DNA of 64,000 bases, from contig CAVSBL010000002.1 in the NCBI GenBank assembly GCA_963726255.1, forward strand, positions 1,408,001 through 1,472,000. Reading direction: 5' to 3'. Below are positions 8,800-18,226 of this stretch, piece after piece (positions within the stretch are counted from its first letter, which is position 1; every line of letters starts with the position of its first letter). A program made the translations under genes and the position numbers. Under the pieces are notes generated by a model. That model ran no database searches. It saw only the letters and a list, made by a program, of their open reading frames with translations, and was not told where the DNA came from. The DNA comes from Candidatus Bathyarchaeota archaeon. GTDB taxonomy: Archaea > Thermoproteota > Bathyarchaeia > 40CM-2-53-6.

Positions 8800-9066
8800 T
8801 TAACCATCAACAACATACCGATAAACGGTAACTTCGCCAGCGGTCGCGCTCTTGCGCGTTATACGCAAAATATCACCCATCTTTGCTCCCAAGGCCTCAG
8901 CGGTAGGATCGCTAGTTCTGACGTAAGGGAGCTGGTGTGGCCTGATATGGAACTCCCGCATCAGTTCTTCCGCTTCCTTCTTGGAAAGAAGCTCATGTTT
9001 CGGAACAAATTGATGGCCGAAGATGTTGTATGACCTCTCCTTTTCGCTATCCTTCAATCTAGGCAT
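8800..9066 (-). CDS. rpoH: RNA polymerase subunit H (Rpo5)
   Basis: HQFVPKHELL...QLPYVRTSDP...RKSATAG...YRYVV. Confidence 0.95.
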   Translation of the reverse strand: MPRLKDSEKERSYNIFGHQFVPKHELLSKKEAEELMREFHIRPHQLPYVRTSDPTAEALGAKMGDILRITRKSATAGEVTVYRYVVDG

Positions 9067-9338: not shown

Positions 9339-9785
9339 TTAGTCGTTCAACACGAGCAGATCGTCCAAGATAGGCGTTTTAGCCCAGTCCCTTGCCGCCT
9401 TCTTCTTGCCATAACCTATCAAGTTCCGGTTCTCTGAGGTCATCAGACTGCAGAAAAAGGCCTTGCCACCCTTCGGCTTGACTTCTTCGATTGCACACTC
9501 GCCGTCGCGCAAAAAAACACACGGAGAATCAGAAAAAGCCCATTCCGAATGAACAACTCGCCCCGCCTCATCGTCTTTCCTCGCGGGACAGACGTAATAT
9601 CGCCTCTGACCAGATTCCAAAACGTAGTCGAACACAAGGAAACGAGTAAGGAGCTCTCTTTCAGACAAGCCGAGGAACCGAGCAATCCTTGGCAAATCAT
9701 CCGGGGAAAGGGCACAGGGATGAGTCATACAGCACTTGCCGCATTTCACACAAGGCTTTAGCGTTGAAGGATTCTTCACTCTCAA
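9339..9785 (-). CDS. YkgJ-like cysteine-cluster (CxxCxxCC) protein
   Basis: CVKCGKCC...C and CVFL...CAIEEVKP pattern. Confidence 0.7.
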   Translation of the reverse strand: MRVKNPSTLKPCVKCGKCCMTHPCALSPDDLPRIARFLGLSERELLTRFLVFDYVLESGQRRYYVCPARKDDEAGRVVHSEWAFSDSPCVFLRDGECAIEEVKPKGGKAFFCSLMTSENRNLIGYGKKKAARDWAKTPILDDLLVLND

Positions 9786-9832: not shown

Positions 9833-10264
9833 TTAAGATAACGCTTGTAGGGCCGTAAGTGCCTTTGCTCTGTCCTGTGAGTAGCGCGTGTATAGTCTGC
9901 TCACATTGGATATGAATTTGATTTTGTCTCCGGCTACTGTGTAGAATTCTTGCATTCTGCCTTCGAGTGTCTTTGCTGCAGACATTGCATCTGTCATGGC
10001 CGCGTTACCCGGTAACGTTAGGTCCATTTTGTATGTTTCCTCGAAAATACCTGAGACTGGTTCGAGTAGGGAGTGATCGACGCTTTCTCTCGCTGTCCTC
10101 TCTAACTCCTTCTTCCGTTTGTCGCTGTTCTCCGCGAATTTTGTGAAGAGTGGCTTGGCTTGGGCGAAGGTGCTACTTGTGGCCAAGCCGCGGTAGAATT
10201 GAGCGGTTTGATCTTCGAGTTGCAGCGTAAACCTGAGAACCATGGTGAAGGTGGTGAGCTCCAT
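9833..10264 (-). CDS. Ferritin-like/rubrerythrin-like four-helix protein
   Basis: Two LE..T/MxxFY helical repeats; the diiron His ligands appear to be lost. Confidence 0.6.
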   Translation of the reverse strand: MELTTFTMVLRFTLQLEDQTAQFYRGLATSSTFAQAKPLFTKFAENSDKRKKELERTARESVDHSLLEPVSGIFEETYKMDLTLPGNAAMTDAMSAAKTLEGRMQEFYTVAGDKIKFISNVSRLYTRYSQDRAKALTALQALS

Positions 10265-10297
10265 ACTTTGAGTCCCTCTCACACACCTTGCATGGCA

Positions 10298-11791
10298 CTA
10301 GAACCATCTTGAGATGACGACTTTTCTGTCCGTGAAGAAGTTGATCGCGTCGAAGCCTTGTCCGTGTAGGTCTCCGAAGAAAGAGTCTTTCCAGCCGCTG
10401 AATGGGAAGTAAGCTACAGGAGCCGCTATTCCTATGTTGACCCCGACGTCTCCTGCCAGTACTCTGTGTTTGAACTCTCTAGCCCACTTGCCGTTTTGTG
10501 TGAATATTGATGCTGCATTGCCATATGGGTTCTCATGGATGATTCTAAGAGCCTCTTCGAAGTCCTTGGCTCTGATCAAGCACATGACGGGTCCGAAGAT
10601 CTCTTCACTGCCAATCTTGCTCTTCGGGTTGACTTTATCGAATATTGTTGGGCCGATGAAGTAGCCTTTCTCGTAACCTGGCACTTTGATATTTCGACCG
10701 TCGAGGATCAATTCGGCCCTTTCCTTGATGCCGGTTTCGATGTAGGATAGGACCTTCTCTTTGGCTTGCGCTGAGCGAAGCGGCCCCATTTGCACAGTTT
10801 CATCTAAGCCGTAACCGGTTTTGACAGCCTTCGCGGCTTCCAATAGCTTCTTCTTCAGTTGCTCGTAGAAAGCATCGTCACCAACGGCTACTACGTTAGC
10901 ACCTGCTAAGCATCTTTGACCTGCACAGCCGTAGACTGAGTTCATTACAGCAGGCATGATCTTGTCGAGTGGTGCATCAGGCATAACCAAGAGGAAGTTC
11001 TTCGCACCACCTTGGCATTGTGCCCGCTTGCCGCCTGCAGTTGCTTTAGCGTAAACGTATTTCGCGACGGGTGTTGAGCCTACAAAAGACACGCCCCTCA
11101 CGTCTTTGCTTTCGAGAAGCGCATCAGAGACATCTCTTGATCCGTTCACGAGGTTGACCACGCCTGGTGGAAAACCTGCCTCGTCTACTAGTTCGAACAG
11201 CTTGTTTTGGGTCAGTGGGACTTCGCTTGAGGGCTTCAGGACATAGGTATTCCCGCACGCGACAGCATAGGGTAGGAACCACCATGGGATCATTGCTGGG
11301 AAATTGGAGGGGGGAAGGCATGCGAAGATTCCCAATGGCTGCAGGACACATTCCTCATCCAGACCGGGAGCGATGGTCTCTAAGTTGTATCCCATCATCA
11401 GCGTAGGAATGCCTGCCGCATGTTCAACACATTCAATCGCTCGTCGAACTTCGCCTCGAGCCTCGTCGATGGTCTTCCCATGTTCCTTCGTTAGGATTTG
11501 AGACACTTCTTCGAAATGCTCTTCCATCAAATTCTTGAGGGTGAACATGTAGCGTGCACGCGTGAGCGGAGGCGTTTCCCTCCATTCATCATAAGCAGCT
11601 TGGGCATACCGGATAGTCTCTTCCACCTCTTCTCTGGTGGACATTGGGACACGGGCTAGCACTTCGGTTGTGGCTGGGTTGACGACGTCTAGGGTCTTAG
11701 TCGATTTTGACGCAACCCATTCGCCGTTGACATAATTCTTTATGACTTCGGCCTGGGCCTCACGCCCTATGACCTTTGTAGCCTGTACCAT
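10298..11791 (-). CDS. mmsA: CoA-acylating (methyl)malonate-semialdehyde dehydrogenase
   Basis: SFVGST, GGAKN, GCAGQRCLA catalytic Cys, EEIFGP, FSGWKDSFFGDLH, C-terminal SRWF. Confidence 0.9.
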   Translation of the reverse strand: MVQATKVIGREAQAEVIKNYVNGEWVASKSTKTLDVVNPATTEVLARVPMSTREEVEETIRYAQAAYDEWRETPPLTRARYMFTLKNLMEEHFEEVSQILTKEHGKTIDEARGEVRRAIECVEHAAGIPTLMMGYNLETIAPGLDEECVLQPLGIFACLPPSNFPAMIPWWFLPYAVACGNTYVLKPSSEVPLTQNKLFELVDEAGFPPGVVNLVNGSRDVSDALLESKDVRGVSFVGSTPVAKYVYAKATAGGKRAQCQGGAKNFLLVMPDAPLDKIMPAVMNSVYGCAGQRCLAGANVVAVGDDAFYEQLKKKLLEAAKAVKTGYGLDETVQMGPLRSAQAKEKVLSYIETGIKERAELILDGRNIKVPGYEKGYFIGPTIFDKVNPKSKIGSEEIFGPVMCLIRAKDFEEALRIIHENPYGNAASIFTQNGKWAREFKHRVLAGDVGVNIGIAAPVAYFPFSGWKDSFFGDLHGQGFDAINFFTDRKVVISRWF

Positions 11792-11960: not shown

Positions 11961-13304
11961 CTAGGCAACCTCTTTGTCTGCTACCTCAAGCGCCCTGTCG
12001 AGCACGCTGACGCCCTGCTCGAATTCTTCTTTCTTGATTATCAGGGGTGGGGCGACGGTTAGGTAGTTGATCCATGTGTTGATGAACACACCGTTCTTCA
12101 TGCATTCTGCGGCGACGCGGTCAACAACCAAAGGTTTGCCCTGTAGCTTATCCTCACGAGTATTGAAGCCCTCCTTGGATTTCCTGTTGCGGACCAATTC
12201 AAGTGCCCAGAAAAGGCCAAGCCCGCGCACATCTCCTACTGAAGGATGTTTATCTTGCAACGCTTTCAACTGTTTTCCAATGGATTGCCCCATTTCACGT
12301 GAGCGTTCAACGAGGCCTAGCCGCTTGTATTCTCCGATGGCCGCGACCCCTGCTGCCAATGTCAGTGGGTGCGCCTCGTAAGTGTGACCGTGCGCGAAGT
12401 AATTCTCCTCAAAATAATCCGAAATTTCGCGAGTTGTTGCGGTGACACTCAGCGGAACATACGCACCAGTGATTCCCTTGGCAGTTGTCATAATGTCGGG
12501 TTTGACCTTCCAGTGGTCTACCGCAAACCATTCGCCTGCCCGTCCCCAACCTGACATGACCTCGTCACAAATCAGTAGGACTTCGTGTTGCTCTGTAATC
12601 TCGCGGAGGCGGGGAAGGTATTCGTCAGGAGGAACGAGTATCCCATTGGTTCCAACAATCGGCTCGACAATGATGGCTGCGACGTTCGATTCATGCTTAA
12701 TCATGTACTCAATATAGTCGGCGCATGCGATGCCACAGTTGGGATATTCCAACCCGAAGGGACAACGATAGCAGTAGGCATCTGGTCCAAAAATAACCCC
12801 TCCCATTTTGCCGGAAGGTTCAATCGGGTATCGTCGTGGATCACCCGTGGCTGCAATTGAACCCGCAGTCGAACCGTGGTAGGATGAGTAGCGGGAAATT
12901 ATCTTGTACTTGCCCGTGAACTGCCTCGCAATCTTGAACGCAGCTTCGTTTGCCTCGGTCCCTGACGTAGCGTAGAAAAACTTCTCAAGTCCTTGGGGCA
13001 TAACCTCCAAGAGAGATTTCGTTAATCTTGCGCGTACATCCGTGGTAAAAGATGGCGCTGCGTAGGGAAGCTTCTTGGCTTGTTCGCAGATTGCTTCAAT
13101 TACAGCCTTATTCCCGTGACCTAGATTGGAACACATCAGTTGGGATGAAAAATCAAGAAAACGCTGGCCTGACGCGTCTGTAAAGTAGCATCCTTCTGCG
13201 CTAACAATCTCGCGAGGAACCCACCCTTTTTGCGCTCGCCAAGTTCCATACGTGTACTCTTTTGATACTTTCACAACGTCCGACTGGGTAGCAGCCTGAA
13301 CCAT
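11961..13304 (-). CDS. Class III (omega-amino acid) aminotransferase
   Basis: SGTEANE, YHGST, DEVMSGWGR, TAKG PLP-lysine, HGHTY. Confidence 0.9.
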   Translation of the reverse strand: MVQAATQSDVVKVSKEYTYGTWRAQKGWVPREIVSAEGCYFTDASGQRFLDFSSQLMCSNLGHGNKAVIEAICEQAKKLPYAAPSFTTDVRARLTKSLLEVMPQGLEKFFYATSGTEANEAAFKIARQFTGKYKIISRYSSYHGSTAGSIAATGDPRRYPIEPSGKMGGVIFGPDAYCYRCPFGLEYPNCGIACADYIEYMIKHESNVAAIIVEPIVGTNGILVPPDEYLPRLREITEQHEVLLICDEVMSGWGRAGEWFAVDHWKVKPDIMTTAKGITGAYVPLSVTATTREISDYFEENYFAHGHTYEAHPLTLAAGVAAIGEYKRLGLVERSREMGQSIGKQLKALQDKHPSVGDVRGLGLFWALELVRNRKSKEGFNTREDKLQGKPLVVDRVAAECMKNGVFINTWINYLTVAPPLIIKKEEFEQGVSVLDRALEVADKEVA

Positions 13305-13428: not shown

Positions 13429-14778
13429 TTAGGAAACGTAGACAATCATGAGATCCATTAGATTCGTACCCGTCTCGCCAGTGCGTATGGCGTCGTGTAA
13501 TCTTCTGAAGGCGCTTGAAGAATCATGCATCCTTAAGCATTCAACGGCATCTATACCAGCCCTCCTAGCGCGTTCTAGACTGTGGCCGTCAACTATCGCC
13601 CCTGCTAGGTCAGTGGGGCCGTCAGTTCCATCGGTACCGATGGAAGCGATGGTGATTTTCTTACTGCCTGCTATTTTCAGGGCTGCCGCCAATGCCAATT
13701 CTTGATTTCGACCTCCTTCTCCGTGCTCCCCCCGAATAGTTACGGTAGTTTCGCCGCCCGCGACCAAGACACATGGAGAGTTAAACGGCTGCTCGTTCGT
13801 CTCGATTTCTTTTGCAATACTTGCCAAAATGATACCAACGTCCTTTGCCTCCCCCTCGACACTGGTTGATATCGTCACGGGGCGTAATCCAAGTTCGGTC
13901 GCCGTTCTCACGGCAGCCCGACAAAGCATCGGATTCTCCGCAAAAATAACATGGTGTGCCCTTACGCCCATCCGTTCAAAGTCAGTTGACTTCGGAGTTT
14001 CTTGATCAATGTCTGCTTTCTCGAAGTAATCCCTTGCCGAGCTGGGAATTTTGTCCCACAGATCATATCTTACAAGAACATGCTTTGCATCGGAGAATGA
14101 AGTCGTATCCGAAACGGTAGGCCCCCAAGGAAGACCTACAACTTCATCGATGGCGATTAAACTAACAACTTCGGCCTGGTGCGCAGCCATTGACAGTTTT
14201 CCGCCACCCACTTGAGAGAGATGCTTTCGAACAGTGTTCATATCTTCGAGGGGTGCCCCAGAATTCAACAGCAAGTTACAGACTTTTCTTGCATCCTCAA
14301 GGGTAATGCCTTTCGGGGGAAGCATGGTTAAGGAAGTACACCCGCCCGTAACACAGACAATTACAAGGTCATCCTTCTCTGCCTTTCTGGCTATCCGAAG
14401 AATTTCCTCACCTCCTATGGCGCTGCCCTCGTCAGGTATTGGATGGCCCCCTTCCATCACCCTAATCTTCTTGGTTTTGCGACCGCCTCCTTTCTTCTCG
14501 ACGACAACGCCTTCTCTAATTTTGTCTTGGAGAATGTCTTCAAGAGCACACGCGGCAAAGGTAACCTGTTTGCCTCCACCGATAAGGAATATGTCCTTAA
14601 TTTTCTTTAGATCGTATCTGAGCGGTCCTATCTTGAGATCGTCGTTAAGCTTGACCTGCTCCATGATGAGGTCATATGAGTTTACTTGTTCTAGGGCGCC
14701 CTCGATGATTTTAAGGACTGCCTCTCTTCCACGAATGTTTCCCTTAGACGTAAGCTCGTCCGAATTTTGTATTACCAT
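13429..14778 (-). CDS. Glycerate 2-kinase (MOFRL/TtuD family)
   Basis: GGHPIPD, NTVRKHLSQVGGG, GGETTV, GGRNQE, GTDGTDGPT, TGTNLMD. Confidence 0.88.
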   Translation of the reverse strand: MVIQNSDELTSKGNIRGREAVLKIIEGALEQVNSYDLIMEQVKLNDDLKIGPLRYDLKKIKDIFLIGGGKQVTFAACALEDILQDKIREGVVVEKKGGGRKTKKIRVMEGGHPIPDEGSAIGGEEILRIARKAEKDDLVIVCVTGGCTSLTMLPPKGITLEDARKVCNLLLNSGAPLEDMNTVRKHLSQVGGGKLSMAAHQAEVVSLIAIDEVVGLPWGPTVSDTTSFSDAKHVLVRYDLWDKIPSSARDYFEKADIDQETPKSTDFERMGVRAHHVIFAENPMLCRAAVRTATELGLRPVTISTSVEGEAKDVGIILASIAKEIETNEQPFNSPCVLVAGGETTVTIRGEHGEGGRNQELALAAALKIAGSKKITIASIGTDGTDGPTDLAGAIVDGHSLERARRAGIDAVECLRMHDSSSAFRRLHDAIRTGETGTNLMDLMIVYVS

Positions 14779-14787
14779 AAGCTAGTA

Positions 14788-16041
14788 CTAGGCTCCGACT
14801 GGCAAAACATATGGTCCTCCGGGAACTATTGCCGTCCTCAGTTCTTGATTTGATTGCATACCGCATAGCCGCAGAGCTTCGTCAACTGACTTGGCGTGCT
14901 CCATTTTCATTGTCCTTACGGTCTCGGGGTCAACCCCGTCGGTGACGACTATGACCTTGGCCTTGGACAGGATTCTTGCAAGTATCTGGATGTTATCCTG
15001 ATCCTCAACGGGCTCGTCCGTCTTCAGCTTCTTAAGGACGTCTTGGGGATCCTTCCCAAGGGACATGTACTTCTGAAAGACCTTGTGGCCCACGCCGTCT
15101 CTACACTCGCTTGCCAGAACGATAGTCCCGCCTTTTCTTATCATCAATTCTCCGACAGCCAAACCTTTGACACACTGATACAAGTTCCTGTCGAGTGGAT
15201 ATCCACCATTTGTTGTCACGACGACATCAAAGAGTTCGTGAAATTCCACTTTCATGTCTTCAGTAACTGCTTTGGCCGCTTTTCTGTGAGTTGGTCCTGG
15301 TTCTCCAATGAATAGGTGCGTCATGTTCTTTTGGGAGTCTACAGTGACGTTTACGATGAGGTGCAGTCCGCTCTTCTGACCTCCTTGAACAATATCCTCG
15401 TAGATGGGGTTGCGGTCTAGAAGTCCGTATCTAGCCCTATCATGCGCTACCATGTCGAAGCTGTGGTTCTTCAGAATTGTAATCTTGCCCGCGATACCCG
15501 GTACGATGCTTTTGTATCCTCCGCCGAATCCTGCGTGAAAGTGCGGAACCACTAACCCGGCGGCGATCTTCAAGTCCGATTCCATAAACCGCCTGTTGAG
15601 GAAGACTGGGGTGCCTCTCGTAGTTGTTCCAAGTGAAACCAATTCCCCGTTGGCATCGTGGTTTTCAATGCAAAACTTGTCTACAATCGTTTGTCCAATA
15701 TTCTCGATCAAATCAGCGCGGCTCATTGGCGCGTGAAGGCCATTTGCAACTAGAATTGTGATATTTTCTCTTGCGACTCCAGCCTCCTCAAGCTCCCCCA
15801 AGAGGAGGGGAACGATTACGTCGTTGAATGCGAAGCGAGTATTGTCGCTGACAACAACGCAGACCTTCTTGGCCTTAAATCCGAGGAAGAAGGAGCGATT
15901 CTCCTTGAAATAGCTGGAGATCTTGCTTTGAGCGTAATTTCTGGGATCAGTAATTGCTCTCGCATCTTTAGGCCTAAGTATTCTTACTTTTCGGGGTGCC
16001 TTGAGGTTGACGTACTTCTGTCCATAAGGGAGTTTTACCAT
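14788..16041 (-). CDS. larA: LarA-family nickel-pincer 2-hydroxyacid racemase/epimerase
   Basis: SDNTR, GLH, PHFHAGFGGGYKS, GGYPLDRNLYQCVKG; start taken at MVKLPYG. Confidence 0.88.
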   Translation of the reverse strand: MVKLPYGQKYVNLKAPRKVRILRPKDARAITDPRNYAQSKISSYFKENRSFFLGFKAKKVCVVVSDNTRFAFNDVIVPLLLGELEEAGVARENITILVANGLHAPMSRADLIENIGQTIVDKFCIENHDANGELVSLGTTTRGTPVFLNRRFMESDLKIAAGLVVPHFHAGFGGGYKSIVPGIAGKITILKNHSFDMVAHDRARYGLLDRNPIYEDIVQGGQKSGLHLIVNVTVDSQKNMTHLFIGEPGPTHRKAAKAVTEDMKVEFHELFDVVVTTNGGYPLDRNLYQCVKGLAVGELMIRKGGTIVLASECRDGVGHKVFQKYMSLGKDPQDVLKKLKTDEPVEDQDNIQILARILSKAKVIVVTDGVDPETVRTMKMEHAKSVDEALRLCGMQSNQELRTAIVPGGPYVLPVGA

Positions 16042-16069
16042 CGTTCTTGTCGTCCATCCTCGTTCACGA

Positions 16070-17356
16070 TCAAACTGGCCTGCGATAGTTCGCCCCTGCA
16101 TACGTTGCCGACTCGCCTAGTTCTTCTTCTATCCTTAGCAATTGGTTGAATTGGGCGGTTCTTTCACTTCTGCATGGAGCCCCGTTCTTGAGTTGACCTG
16201 CACCTATGGCAACGGTTAGGTCGGCGAGCCATGTATCCTCCGTTTGGCCCGATCTTTCAGAAGCGACGACACTGTAGCCGTTCTTGACGGCATATTGCGC
16301 GACGTCCAAGGCCTCACTCAATGTTCCTATCTGATTGACCTTCCAGAGTACGGCATTGGCCGCGCGACTTTCTACTCCCGTTCGAACCCGTGACAAATTA
16401 GTGACGAAGAAATCGTCACCCACTATCTGAATTCGCCCCAATCTCTTAGTGACCTCAATGAAGCCCTCAAAATCATCTTCATCGAATGGATCCTCGATCG
16501 ATTTAAGCGGCAACGTGTTGACCAACTCTTCGTAAAGATCCATAAGGTTCTCGCGAGAGAATTCTTTGCCCATCAGATGGTACTTGCCATACTTCCTATC
16601 GTAAAGATGACTTGCAGCCGCGTCCATCGCGAGTATGAACTTATCTTCATAACCAAGTTCCTCGATTGCTCTGAGAATCTCGTCAAAGGCGTCATGAGGG
16701 TCGCTTATGCCGGGAGGCGAATAAGCTCCCTCATCGCCTACGTTCAAAGCGTACTTTGATCGTTTCGCGAGCCGTTCTCCTAGTTTGAAATAGACCTCAG
16801 CGCTGAGACGCATAGCCTCTGAAAAACCCTCGGCTCCAATTGGCATAGCATTGAATTCTTGAAAATCTAGGTCAGTTGCACCAAGTTTTCCGCCGTTTAT
16901 CATAATTATCATGGGAACAGGAAGTATGTGCGCTTGGGGACCCCCGATGTATCTGTAGAGGGGAAGACCGAGAGCCTCTGCAGCGACCCGTGCAACTGCG
17001 AGAGAAACGCCGACGATGGCGTTCCCTCCTAGTTTCGACTTATTCTCAGTTCCATCGAGTTCAATTATCGTCGAGTCTATCTCCTTCTGGTTTCTGACAT
17101 CCATCCCGGTCACTTTAGGTCCGATGACCTCATTGACATTTCTTACAGCAGTCAAGACGCCTCTTCCAGCATATCTAGAACCACCGTCTCTCAGTTCGAA
17201 AGCCTCGTATTTTCCTCTGGATCTACCGGACGGAACATCAGCTCTTGCCCTTGCTCCCCCTTCGGCGATAACATCTACCTCTATCGTTGGGTTTCCTCTT
17301 GAATCCAGTATCTCCCTCGCCCTCACTGATTTGATTCTGAAGATTTCTTGAGACAA
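16070..17356 (-). CDS. eno: Enolase-family protein with divergent active site
   Basis: REILDSRGNPT, VGDEG, SIEDP, VGDD, KVNQIG retained; GASTG is GRSRG, the GGxHA His is lost, SHRSGE is SERSGQ. Confidence 0.85.
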   Translation of the reverse strand: MSQEIFRIKSVRAREILDSRGNPTIEVDVIAEGGARARADVPSGRSRGKYEAFELRDGGSRYAGRGVLTAVRNVNEVIGPKVTGMDVRNQKEIDSTIIELDGTENKSKLGGNAIVGVSLAVARVAAEALGLPLYRYIGGPQAHILPVPMIIMINGGKLGATDLDFQEFNAMPIGAEGFSEAMRLSAEVYFKLGERLAKRSKYALNVGDEGAYSPPGISDPHDAFDEILRAIEELGYEDKFILAMDAAASHLYDRKYGKYHLMGKEFSRENLMDLYEELVNTLPLKSIEDPFDEDDFEGFIEVTKRLGRIQIVGDDFFVTNLSRVRTGVESRAANAVLWKVNQIGTLSEALDVAQYAVKNGYSVVASERSGQTEDTWLADLTVAIGAGQLKNGAPCRSERTAQFNQLLRIEEELGESATYAGANYRRPV

Positions 17357-17564
17357 ACCGATTTACCAGCACACTAAGTCAATTCTACGCGCGTTTCTTG
17401 AACAAGGACTTATCCTTTCGAACTGTGGCTTATCTTCGACGCAATTGGGTGCAAAACGGCACAATGGCTCGTTCGAAAGATGGAGTCAATGTCAGGTATT
17501 CTTCTCGATATGCTTTCGGATTGAACCCGGGTGTTCCTTACGCGTGCGGCGGTCTCTGGCCAGC

Positions 17565-18026
17565 TCAAGTCTCCATTCTTGGATCCTCTTTTAGTATTCT
17601 TGCGACAACTTGCGTGCTGGTTCTTTCAATATCGCTCATGTTGCTGAGGCGTTCCAGTTTTTGCATATAGTCATCTCTGTCATGTGCTCGGATTAGGACT
17701 ATGAAGTCGACGTCTCCAAGAATATAATATACAGCCCAGACTCCAGGGATCTTGGATAGTCTGAGTCCAACTTTCTGGTGATACCGCGGGCCATACTTGG
17801 CTCGAACAAGCACCGCTGCAAGATAGTCGTACCCTAATCTTGCAGGATCGAGTTTCGCATAATACCCTTCAATTACCTTCTCTCGCTCTAGCCTGCTGAT
17901 TCTGTAGTGCACCGTTGATTTCGGGATGCCAAGCCTCTTAGCGATTACCTGCAGTGGAACCCTGGAATCTTTTTGAAGTATCTTTAGCAGGGTCCTATCG
18001 ATCTTATCCAACTTTGCCACTTCCAT
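17565..18026 (-). CDS. Lrp/AsnC transcriptional regulator
   Basis: LDKIDRTLLKILQKDSR HTH, GDVDF RAM domain. Confidence 0.92.
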   Translation of the reverse strand: MEVAKLDKIDRTLLKILQKDSRVPLQVIAKRLGIPKSTVHYRISRLEREKVIEGYYAKLDPARLGYDYLAAVLVRAKYGPRYHQKVGLRLSKIPGVWAVYYILGDVDFIVLIRAHDRDDYMQKLERLSNMSDIERTSTQVVARILKEDPRMET

Positions 18027-18226
18027 TCGGCACACAACGCCCCATTTGGACAGTGGAGCTTTTCTTTAAGACACTATCGGAATGTTGGGCTCAAGAATCC
18101 GATACGCGATGAAGAAAGCGTTTAGCCAATTTTACTGGCGAACCTTGTCGGGTAGCTGGGATTGGCTGCTCAACATATATTTTGGAGAGACATGCACGAT
18201 AGACGGGCCTTGAAGGTGGAACCACA

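Follow-up and report, generated by a model that had tools for sequence, protein, structure and literature searches.

Few enzymes are as highly conserved as enolase, and the enolase subgroup is usually treated as carrying out one reaction. It takes part, for example, in the glycerate branch of the serine cycle, where hydroxypyruvate reductase, glycerate 2-kinase and enolase act in succession to give phosphoenolpyruvate (PEP). Acid-sugar dehydratases, such as those of the mandelate-racemase subgroup, belong to other subgroups of the enolase superfamily and act on unphosphorylated substrates. Here we describe a gene cluster from a Candidatus Bathyarchaeota archaeon in which an enolase paralogue, called ENOv below, is encoded beside a LarA-family racemase homologue and a glycerate-2-kinase-like kinase. 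The cluster lies in a 64,000-nucleotide stretch of contig CAVSBL010000002.1 (G000:C2:1408001-1472000; hereafter the window), and coordinates are window positions unless a genome (G) or locus (L) label is given.

The cluster is a co-directional run of eight minus-strand genes, from an Lrp-type regulator gene (first, at 18035) to the gene for a CxxCxxCC protein (last, at 9339). Its open reading frames, domains and gene order (Lrp, enolase, LarA, C2-kinase) are as given in a preliminary description of this DNA. ENOv, a paralogue with Glu in place of the enolase His373, has 428 amino acids (16070..17356; Enolase_N, PF03952, 187.7 bits; Enolase_C, PF00113, 341.9 bits) and is separated by 28 nucleotides (nt) from a gene for a homologue of the LarA-family 2-hydroxyacid racemases that depend on a nickel-pincer nucleotide (14788..16041; Lar_N and LarA_C domains). 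The LarA reading frame is open from 16101, overlapping the end of ENOv, and its likely start is 16041. After a further 9 nt comes the kinase gene (13429..14778), with DUF4147 and MOFRL domains (189.1 and 127.4 bits). We conclude that ENOv and the kinase are a co-diverged two-enzyme module, to which a racemase was added in this lineage, under an Lrp-type regulator. That the ENOv module is distinct and conserved is well supported; its chemistry is predicted, and we propose with moderate confidence that the module has co-evolved to racemise, phosphorylate at C2 and beta-eliminate a close analogue of glycerate.

A variant enolase family

The motif changes and the intact motifs that the preliminary description had read in ENOv were both seen in pairwise alignments with the M. 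jannaschii enolase 2pa6 (498.7 bits) and with the canonical enolase of the same genome (49% identity). PSGASTG is replaced by PSGRSRG, NGGKHA by NGGKLG, SHRSGETED by SERSGQTED and AKYN by AQFN; AMD, IED, GDD, KVNQ and GDEG are kept. ENOv thus has Arg45 (17222-17224), Leu158 (16883-16885) and Glu367 (16256-16258, all on the minus strand) where canonical enolases have Ala, His and His, and so lacks the loop Ala and both active-site histidines that mark the enolases. Gln371, Trp376 and Gln402 are further key residues in the alignment. The two histidine columns are those of His159 and His373 in yeast. Roles are stated for the Ala and one His: the carbonyl of the Ala in the PSGASTGTF loop is a ligand of the second metal, and a Glu168/His367 network is believed to activate water (PMC8996150, in part).

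These replacements are shared by a large family. Among 166 clade members, all with Glu at the His373 column (His to Glu in 166/166), the loop Ala is changed to Arg or Lys in 164 and the His of the His159 column to Leu in 164, with Glu to Gln in 161 and Lys to Gln in 155. A set of 30 His-type enolases keeps the canonical A, H, H, E and K in 29-30/30, the loop Ala and both His in all 30. Lys193 to Gly, Phe376 to Trp and Ile377 to Leu are also clade-wide. The change to GRSRG, listed as a unit in the preliminary description, is clade-wide only in its first Arg; the second (Thr to Arg) is less general, at 123/166. All 166 members retain the metal ligands Ser46, Asp245, Glu288 and Asp315, the catalytic residues Lys339, Glu209 and Glu167, the phosphate binders Arg368 and Ser369 and the carboxylate binders Gln166 and Lys390. 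On these counts the residue changes in ENOv are not chance.

The best 120 of 7999 ENOv homologues (64-98% identity) bear the variant motifs and come from Bathyarchaeia, Nitrososphaerota, Hadarchaeum, Omnitrophota and Methylomirabilota; the named members among them are all annotated 'phosphopyruvate hydratase' or 'enolase'. The Glu-type enolases form one clade (79/79 tips, SH-like support 0.948) in a tree built from 186 sequences of the enolase family, and the sister group of this clade is that of the Thermococci-type canonical enolases. By alignment and tree, then, ENOv represents a family spread over archaea and bacteria and is not a drifted copy. The 93 His-type enolases of the tree, very divergent archaeal ones included, have both histidines without exception. 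A pairwise reading had suggested 'AH/LH/IH-type' enolases without His159, but this was an alignment artefact, as the multiple alignment shows the His (AHH, KHH, THH).

The preliminary description had staked its proposal on ENOv not being the genome's only enolase, and a separate canonical enolase is indeed encoded about 90 kb away (G000:C2:1515970-1517226; 584.9 bits; PSGASTG, GGKHA and SHRSGET). A His-type enolase is likewise present in 34 of the 36 other genomes with a Glu-type enolase, the exceptions being G033, with none, and G004, with only a split, untyped gene. That further enolase-like gene of G004 lies in two adjacent pieces (G004:C19:228476-229682) and could be a pseudogene or an assembly error; the same could be said of a Glu-type enolase with an in-frame TAA at G030:C135:7290-8540 (L120/L217).

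Linkage of ENOv to a clade of MOFRL kinases

The gene neighbourhoods of SERS-type enolases, which the preliminary description had proposed to analyse, reveal a tight link to a dedicated clade of MOFRL kinases that crosses phyla. In the 36 other genomes that hold a Glu-type enolase, a MOFRL gene lies within 3.5 kb of 35/37 Glu-type enolases versus 1/37 His373-type ones, and this sole linked His373-type enolase itself sits beside an ENOv pair. These genomes also have 15 enolase paralogues that are much more diverged, and 10 of them have a MOFRL gene within this distance. In 80 loci retrieved with ENOv as query, a kinase lies within 3 kb of 41/51 Glu-type but only 2/29 His-type enolases; eight of the ten Glu-type loci without a kinase end at a contig edge, and two (L008 and L016) have complete flanks. 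Loci of Thermovirgaceae type (L050) and of Actinomycetes type (L052) are among those analysed. Among 121 Thermococci genomes ENOv is found in four, each time adjoining a kinase, whereas the best-scoring 26 other enolases of this group (L221-L246) are all canonical, with no kinase next to any of them.

The kinases themselves fall into two clades in a MOFRL tree of 83 sequences (support 0.998). One holds 24 unlinked kinases and three from Thermococcales; the other contains every one of the 40 ENOv-linked kinases and of the 10 that are linked to other enolase paralogues, together with six unlinked ones. The window genome has a second MOFRL gene (L186:1477-2784, on G000:C2), which has no enolase nearby, belongs to the first clade and encodes a protein 32% identical to the window kinase. 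A kinase of this unlinked type also occurs in at least 23 of the 36 genomes, which often have, therefore, two parallel kinase/enolase sets. The linked kinases, to judge from the tree, co-diverge with ENOv as a separate clade. Since diverged enolase paralogues are paired with MOFRL kinases as well, a kinase plus an enolase-type lyase looks like a general scheme.

The window kinase scores 236 bits to TM1585 (2b8n) and falls below the NCBIfam cut-offs for archaeal glycerate 2-kinases (213.3 versus 550, 168.7 versus 670), a weak test because the genome's unlinked copy fails it too (247.2 versus 550).

LarA-type racemases and neighbouring genes

The window LarA retains its catalytic and cofactor residues, namely His103, His167, Arg69, Lys177, His193 and YQCVK, with equivalents of Arg75, His108, His174, Lys184, His200, Tyr294, Gln295 and Lys298. 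Genes for the nickel-pincer cofactor, which the preliminary description had wanted to see in the genome, are present elsewhere in it and all above their cut-offs (larB 236.2 bits versus 175, larC 156.4 versus 90, larE 307.2 versus 150).

Four positions of LarA1 (F175, F176, W358 and T359) select for the side chain of the substrate (PMC11770544 and PMC7583248, in part). In the portion of PMC11770544 consulted, the lactate racemase (LAR) group usually has the signature F,F,W,E/Q and includes a glycerate-preferring member, so that racemisation of glycerate by LarA enzymes is known, and gluconate 2-epimerase reads E,V,A,H. In malate racemases (MAR), a Lys in the W358/T359 region is thought to bind the second carboxylate (PMC11770544 and PMC7583248, in part). 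The corresponding residues of the window LarA are Phe168, His169, Asp349 (14995-14997, minus strand) and Asn350, giving the signature F,H,D,N. The protein differs from the LAR group in this signature and in score (381.3 against the NF033504 cut-off of 460), and from the malate racemases LarAH5 and LarAH6 in having D,N rather than H/Q,K and in scoring 331.6 against 500 and 326.6 against 462.

F,H,D,N is not peculiar to the window. It is read in 26 of the 27 closest LarA homologues (63-96% identity), the 27th sequence being truncated, whereas 91 of the next 93 (49% identity or less) read FFW[EQ]; the 27 proteins form a subfamily set off by this gap in identity, from 63% to 49% or less. A search of the genome contigs with the single LarA sequence gave no relative, and relatives came from other homologue searches. 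The best 29 LarA homologues in 301 Bathyarchaeia genomes comprise 28 with F,F,W,E/Q and one with Y,Y,H,K, and none of the 29 is beside ENOv or the kinase. In Synergistota, Chloroflexota, a Bacteriovoracaceae bin and two archaeal bins, the immediate neighbour of ENOv and kinase is a second LarA lineage, only 31-35% identical, which reads E,F/Y,D,H in 8/8. In 151 Synergistota genomes, scored with flanks of 1.5 kb, an enolase-family neighbour was found for nine of ten E[FM]DH LarAs (two of the ten being loci already in the set) against none of 20 other LarAs; two of these 20, both LAR-type, adjoin a MOFRL kinase with no enolase within 1.5 kb.

Two unrelated ENOv-linked LarA lineages, then, both have Asp at the Trp358 position, which from sequence comparison is a convergent feature of a re-modelled substrate pocket; in lactate and glycerate racemases the Trp at this position points towards the side chain of the substrate. 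By analogy with the Lys of malate racemases, this Asp suggests a substrate with a cationic or strongly hydrogen-bonding substituent. In two Synergistota loci, L296 and L297 (= L329 and L330; G550:C25 and G549:C6), an E,F,D,H LarA lies beside a more diverged enolase paralogue, 37-38% identical and with Gly at the His373 column; L330 also has a MOFRL kinase, an AraC regulator and a DctP gene.

The preliminary description had treated enolase, LarA and kinase as a trio. The kinase link stands, but LarA is not a fixed third member, as it lies within 3 kb of only 8/51 Glu-type enolases in loci from other genomes. The 97%-identical relative L006 has a gap of 1157 nt inside LarA, leaving 19 nt of its 5' end and 78 nt of its 3' end; this internal deletion of about 1160 nt (window 14866-16022, minus strand; L006:1098-1099) spares both ends of the gene. 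In sequencing run X1, the one in which the locus is best represented, a deletion contig with the joint 14865->16026 occurs beside contigs that bear LarA. A recent insertion of LarA was considered and rejected, because L006 retains both gene ends and the X1 joint contig agrees; both point to loss of LarA in the relative. Intact LarA is also found in contigs of three other studies, and one contig from another study (X4) bridges kinase, LarA and ENOv. No RNA dataset is listed among those that contain the locus. Seven pairs of ENOv and LarA homologues apparently share bins, which suggests the same arrangement there.

The Lrp/AsnC-type regulator gene (17565..18035, minus strand), 208 nt upstream of ENOv, encodes an AsnC-type helix-turn-helix (HTH_24/HTH_AsnC, 54.0 bits) and a ligand-binding domain (AsnC_trans_reg, 50.1 bits); the profile search reached no equivalog cut-off for it, and relatives occur at two other Glu-type loci, L031 (54%) and L016 (75%). 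A class III (omega-type) aminotransferase gene (11961..13304), co-directional with the kinase gene and 124 nt downstream of it, has a counterpart at the same position in L006 (98%), and such aminotransferases adjoin Glu-type enolases in six further loci (seven genes, 31-38% identity). A role for it as a PbfA-type ammonia-lyase was rejected: it scores 303.5 against a cut-off of 525, and PbfA is inactive on isoserine (PMC8154272, in part). A CoA-acylating (methyl)malonate-semialdehyde dehydrogenase gene (10298..11791, minus strand; TIGR01722 543.9 bits, cut-off 448.5) is found again with Glu-type enolases in L006, L016 and L041. Both enzymes are uncertain members of the pathway. A protein of 149 amino acids without a Pfam family (9833..10282, minus strand) travels with the dehydrogenase, its relatives being encoded 3' of that gene in L006 and L016 and beside it in L041, and the CxxCxxCC (putative Zn/Fe-chelating) protein (9339..9785, minus strand; PF03692), which ends the run, has relatives in L006 and L016. 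Beyond it, a short reading frame (8800-9066, minus strand) resembles by eye the archaeal RNA polymerase subunit H/Rpb5, consistent with an archaeal origin.

Elsewhere the enolase-kinase pair keeps varied company. In Hadarchaeum, Thermococci and some Bathyarchaeia and Thaumarchaeota bins (L018, L042, L043, L017, L015, L021), the following gene types lie near it: xanthine dehydrogenase, adenine-deaminase-like, hydantoinase-like, PreA-like (DHO_dh+Fer4), ornithine-carbamoyltransferase-like (OTCase-like) and M20 genes. The Synergistota pairs neighbour genes for a TRAP transporter and a GntR regulator, as in cultured relatives of L048 and L050 where these two precede LarA, ENOv and kinase, or else saccharopine-dehydrogenase-like and amidinotransferase-like genes. 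An HpcH/HpaI aldolase gene is near the pair in L013 and L033. What these neighbourhoods have in common is a connection to small compounds rich in nitrogen, with a C3 acid as the end point. The archaeal loci resemble bacterial clusters for reductive purine and pyrimidine degradation, and were compared for this with the reductive uric-acid/2,3-diaminopropionate pathway (10.1101/2025.05.19.654654; 10.1101/2025.04.24.650524). The shared gene types are suggestive only and do not establish a link to that pathway; the searched parts of the two reports mention neither enolase nor archaea.

A set of strongly diverged enolase paralogues (L319:1-9136, L320 and L321, in G005:C14, G013:C25 and G020:C28; L323 and L324, in G035:C50 and G036:C213) keeps the metal ligands and the Lys base and is without equivalents of Glu167, Glu209 and Arg368. 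Each adjoins a MOFRL kinase of its own, and the operons are of sugar type. They come in two kinds, one with two FGGY kinases, a DeoC/LacD aldolase, two Zn-dehydrogenases and an MFS carrier, and the other with an aldo-keto reductase and an esterase. These paralogues may be phospho-sugar-acid lyases.

Predicted chemistry and relation to known systems

In the proposed pathway, LarA, with the nickel-pincer cofactor supplied by larBCE elsewhere in the genome, would interconvert the enantiomers of a small polar 2-hydroxy acid, and the MOFRL kinase would phosphorylate the 2-hydroxyl of the D-form. ENOv would bind the resulting 2-phospho acid on two Mg2+, Lys339 would take the C2 proton, and the C3 substituent would leave with the aid of Glu209, Glu167 and Glu367. 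The product would be PEP or a 3-substituted homologue, whose phosphate would repay the ATP. The catalytic steps and the substrate are all predicted from sequence. Most probably the substrate is not D-glycerate or 2-phosphoglycerate itself but a close analogue with a difference at C3.

Alternatively, ENOv could be an ordinary enolase in private use. Hydroxypyruvate or L-glycerate would be converted to D-glycerate, then to 2-phosphoglycerate and on to PEP, with ENOv as a catabolic isozyme that acts on 2-phosphoglycerate. Arg45, Leu158 and Glu367 would in that case be a compensated alternative to the canonical residues, or would tune metal preference, direction or tolerance of inhibitors (e.g. 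phosphorylated tartronate semialdehyde). We consider this a strong alternative, if on balance less probable than a new substrate, and a number of observations agree with it and weigh against a new substrate. ENOv reaches 530.6 bits on TIGR01060 (cut-off 300), the stem branch of the Glu-type clade is short (0.085), and the core residues are kept in 166/166, including Glu209, the general acid that the departure of a hydroxyl would require. Arg45 and Glu367 could, we reason, compensate each other and restore ordinary activity. The active site of the kinase is almost unchanged: linked and unlinked-clade kinases have 37 invariant columns in common, and only one well-conserved column differs between them, with His418 (13525-13527, minus strand) as the sole residue specific to the enolase-linked clade, in place of Asn. 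Among solved structures, PH0495 (1x3l; 326 bits) is closest to the window kinase; it is presumably a glycerate kinase that forms 2-phosphoglycerate, although its PDB title reads only 'hypothetical protein'. From the near-identity of the conserved columns and the closeness of PH0495 it follows that the kinase substrate must look much like glycerate.

Gene context supplies further points of this kind. Glyoxylate/hydroxypyruvate-reductase-like (GyaR-like) D-2-hydroxyacid dehydrogenases are encoded beside the pair in 10 loci, which fits a plain conversion of hydroxypyruvate to D-glycerate, and LarA enzymes that racemise glycerate are known, as described above. Eleven of the 36 genomes have a single MOFRL match, which lies beside the variant enolase in ten (in G033 it is on another contig). 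In run X1 the form in which the deletion brings ENOv to the kinase and the intact form occur at similar depth, so that LarA is dispensable. In L084 and L085, moreover, a canonical Ala/His/His enolase is paired with a MOFRL kinase, and linkage alone is for this reason no proof of a new substrate. These two loci are from Bathyarchaeota bins (L084:5843-8503, L085:6197-8849); the enolase gene lies directly 3' of that for the kinase, which is 38-39% identical to the window kinase, and an aldehyde dehydrogenase gene is near. The arrangement may be ancestral or parallel.

Several features of the family speak against a private enolase of this kind, and we favour a substrate other than 2-phosphoglycerate because of them. 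First, two histidines that are invariant in the 93 His-type enolases of the tree have been replaced and then frozen in ENOv. Second, the genomes usually keep a housekeeping copy of each enzyme, the His-type enolase in 34/36 genomes and a second kinase, of the unlinked clade, in at least 23/36. Third, the racemases recruited to the pair are not of the glycerate/lactate type, F,F,W,E/Q. Finally, glycerate-type pairs of racemase and kinase seem to do without a private enolase, judging by just two Synergistota LAR-type cases read with short flanks of 1.5 kb.

If the substrate does differ from glycerate at C3, our best single guess is a 3-amino compound, with isoserine converted to 2-phosphoisoserine and then to PEP and NH4+, the amine being the leaving group. 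As a specific assignment this is doubtful, and the case for it, made up of acidic substitutions in two enzymes and of nitrogen-rich neighbourhoods with an Lrp regulator, class III aminotransferases and hydantoinase-, OTCase- and M20-type genes, is circumstantial. Next after isoserine we place 2,3-dihydroxy acids of C4 or longer (erythronate, threonate or 2,3-dihydroxybutanoate), a sub-case of the glycerate-analogue proposal with a hydroxyl as the leaving group. ENOv, together with the kinase, would then work as a phospho-sugar-acid dehydratase, and loss of the 3-hydroxyl would yield a PEP homologue substituted at C3. Retention of Glu209 agrees with this, replacement of His158 by Leu would give room or a hydrophobic contact, and the racemase signature E,F/Y,D,H begins and ends with the same residues as that of gluconate 2-epimerase, E,V,A,H (PMC11770544, in part). 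The sugar-type operons around other pairs of enolase paralogue and MOFRL kinase, and the HpcH/HpaI aldolase genes in L013 and L033, point the same way. Yet the kinase pocket is almost unchanged, the window contains no sugar genes, and the neighbourhoods of Glu-type enolases are nitrogen-rich rather than sugar-rich; we thus hold C4 acids to be improbable. The substrates 3-sulfolactate, tartrate and 2,3-bisphosphoglycerate were considered and ranked low, by reasoning from the new pocket residues of ENOv and LarA, which are acidic. That ENOv is a non-catalytic or moonlighting copy, such as a regulator or scaffold, is very improbable: enolases are known moonlighters (PMC8996150, in part), but all 11 catalytic and binding residues are kept in 166/166, ENOv lies between two enzymes in its operon, and its linkage to the kinase is stable across phyla.

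A broader picture can be drawn tentatively, and we would not call it probable. In anaerobic archaea and bacteria the enolase subgroup may have diversified to give several lyases, each with its own MOFRL kinase, that carry out C2-phosphorylation and then beta-elimination to energy-rich enol phosphates. The clade with Glu at position 373 would be the one nearest to glycerate but would act on another substrate, in the boldest version as an ammonia-lyase that makes PEP from 2-phosphoisoserine, and would be fed by new nickel-pincer racemases with an Asp in the pocket. A family treated as isofunctional would then clearly conceal a divergence of function. Should the substrate prove new, the module would lead directly from a small hydroxy or amino-hydroxy acid to PEP without net use of ATP, both in archaea that are abundant in sediment and peat and in bacteria that ferment amino acids, many automatic annotations would be corrected, and two LarA subfamilies would gain a predicted polar or cationic substrate.

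Full-text searches of the literature found no description of an enolase with these substitutions or of an enolase/MOFRL/LarA module. Text searches of PMC7583248 and PMC11770544, which covered these articles in part, returned no 'enolase' and one generic remark on a 'sugar kinase', and supplementary context tables (e.g. Table S1 of PMC7583248) may list the association.

Each enzyme of the module is nonetheless close to a known one. ENOv has the same two domains, metal ligands, Lys base, Glu acid and phosphate and carboxylate binders as canonical enolase (EC 4.2.1.11, TIGR01060, e.g. 2pa6), but has Arg, Leu and Glu at the changed positions, with Gln, Gln, Trp and Leu in the second shell, and it is a second copy, kinase-linked and in a clade of its own. 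The window kinase has the DUF4147+MOFRL architecture of the glycerate 2-kinases PH0495 and TM1585, but belongs to a separate, enolase-linked clade with His418 for Asn. The window LarA has the domains and the catalytic and cofactor residues of the LarA superfamily, with larBCE in the genome, but reads F,H,D,N where LAR enzymes read F,F,W,E/Q and MAR enzymes H/Q,K. As a pathway, the module most resembles the glycerate branch of the serine cycle, with the same order of chemistry, the same enzyme families and a D-2-hydroxyacid dehydrogenase as a frequent neighbour of ENOv; that branch, however, uses the housekeeping enolase, whereas the ENOv module has a dedicated kinase and enolase, often beside the canonical set. 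The acid-sugar dehydratases, like the reaction proposed for ENOv, abstract a proton alpha to a metal-bound carboxylate and then beta-eliminate, but ENOv lies inside the enolase subgroup proper and has kept the phosphate site.

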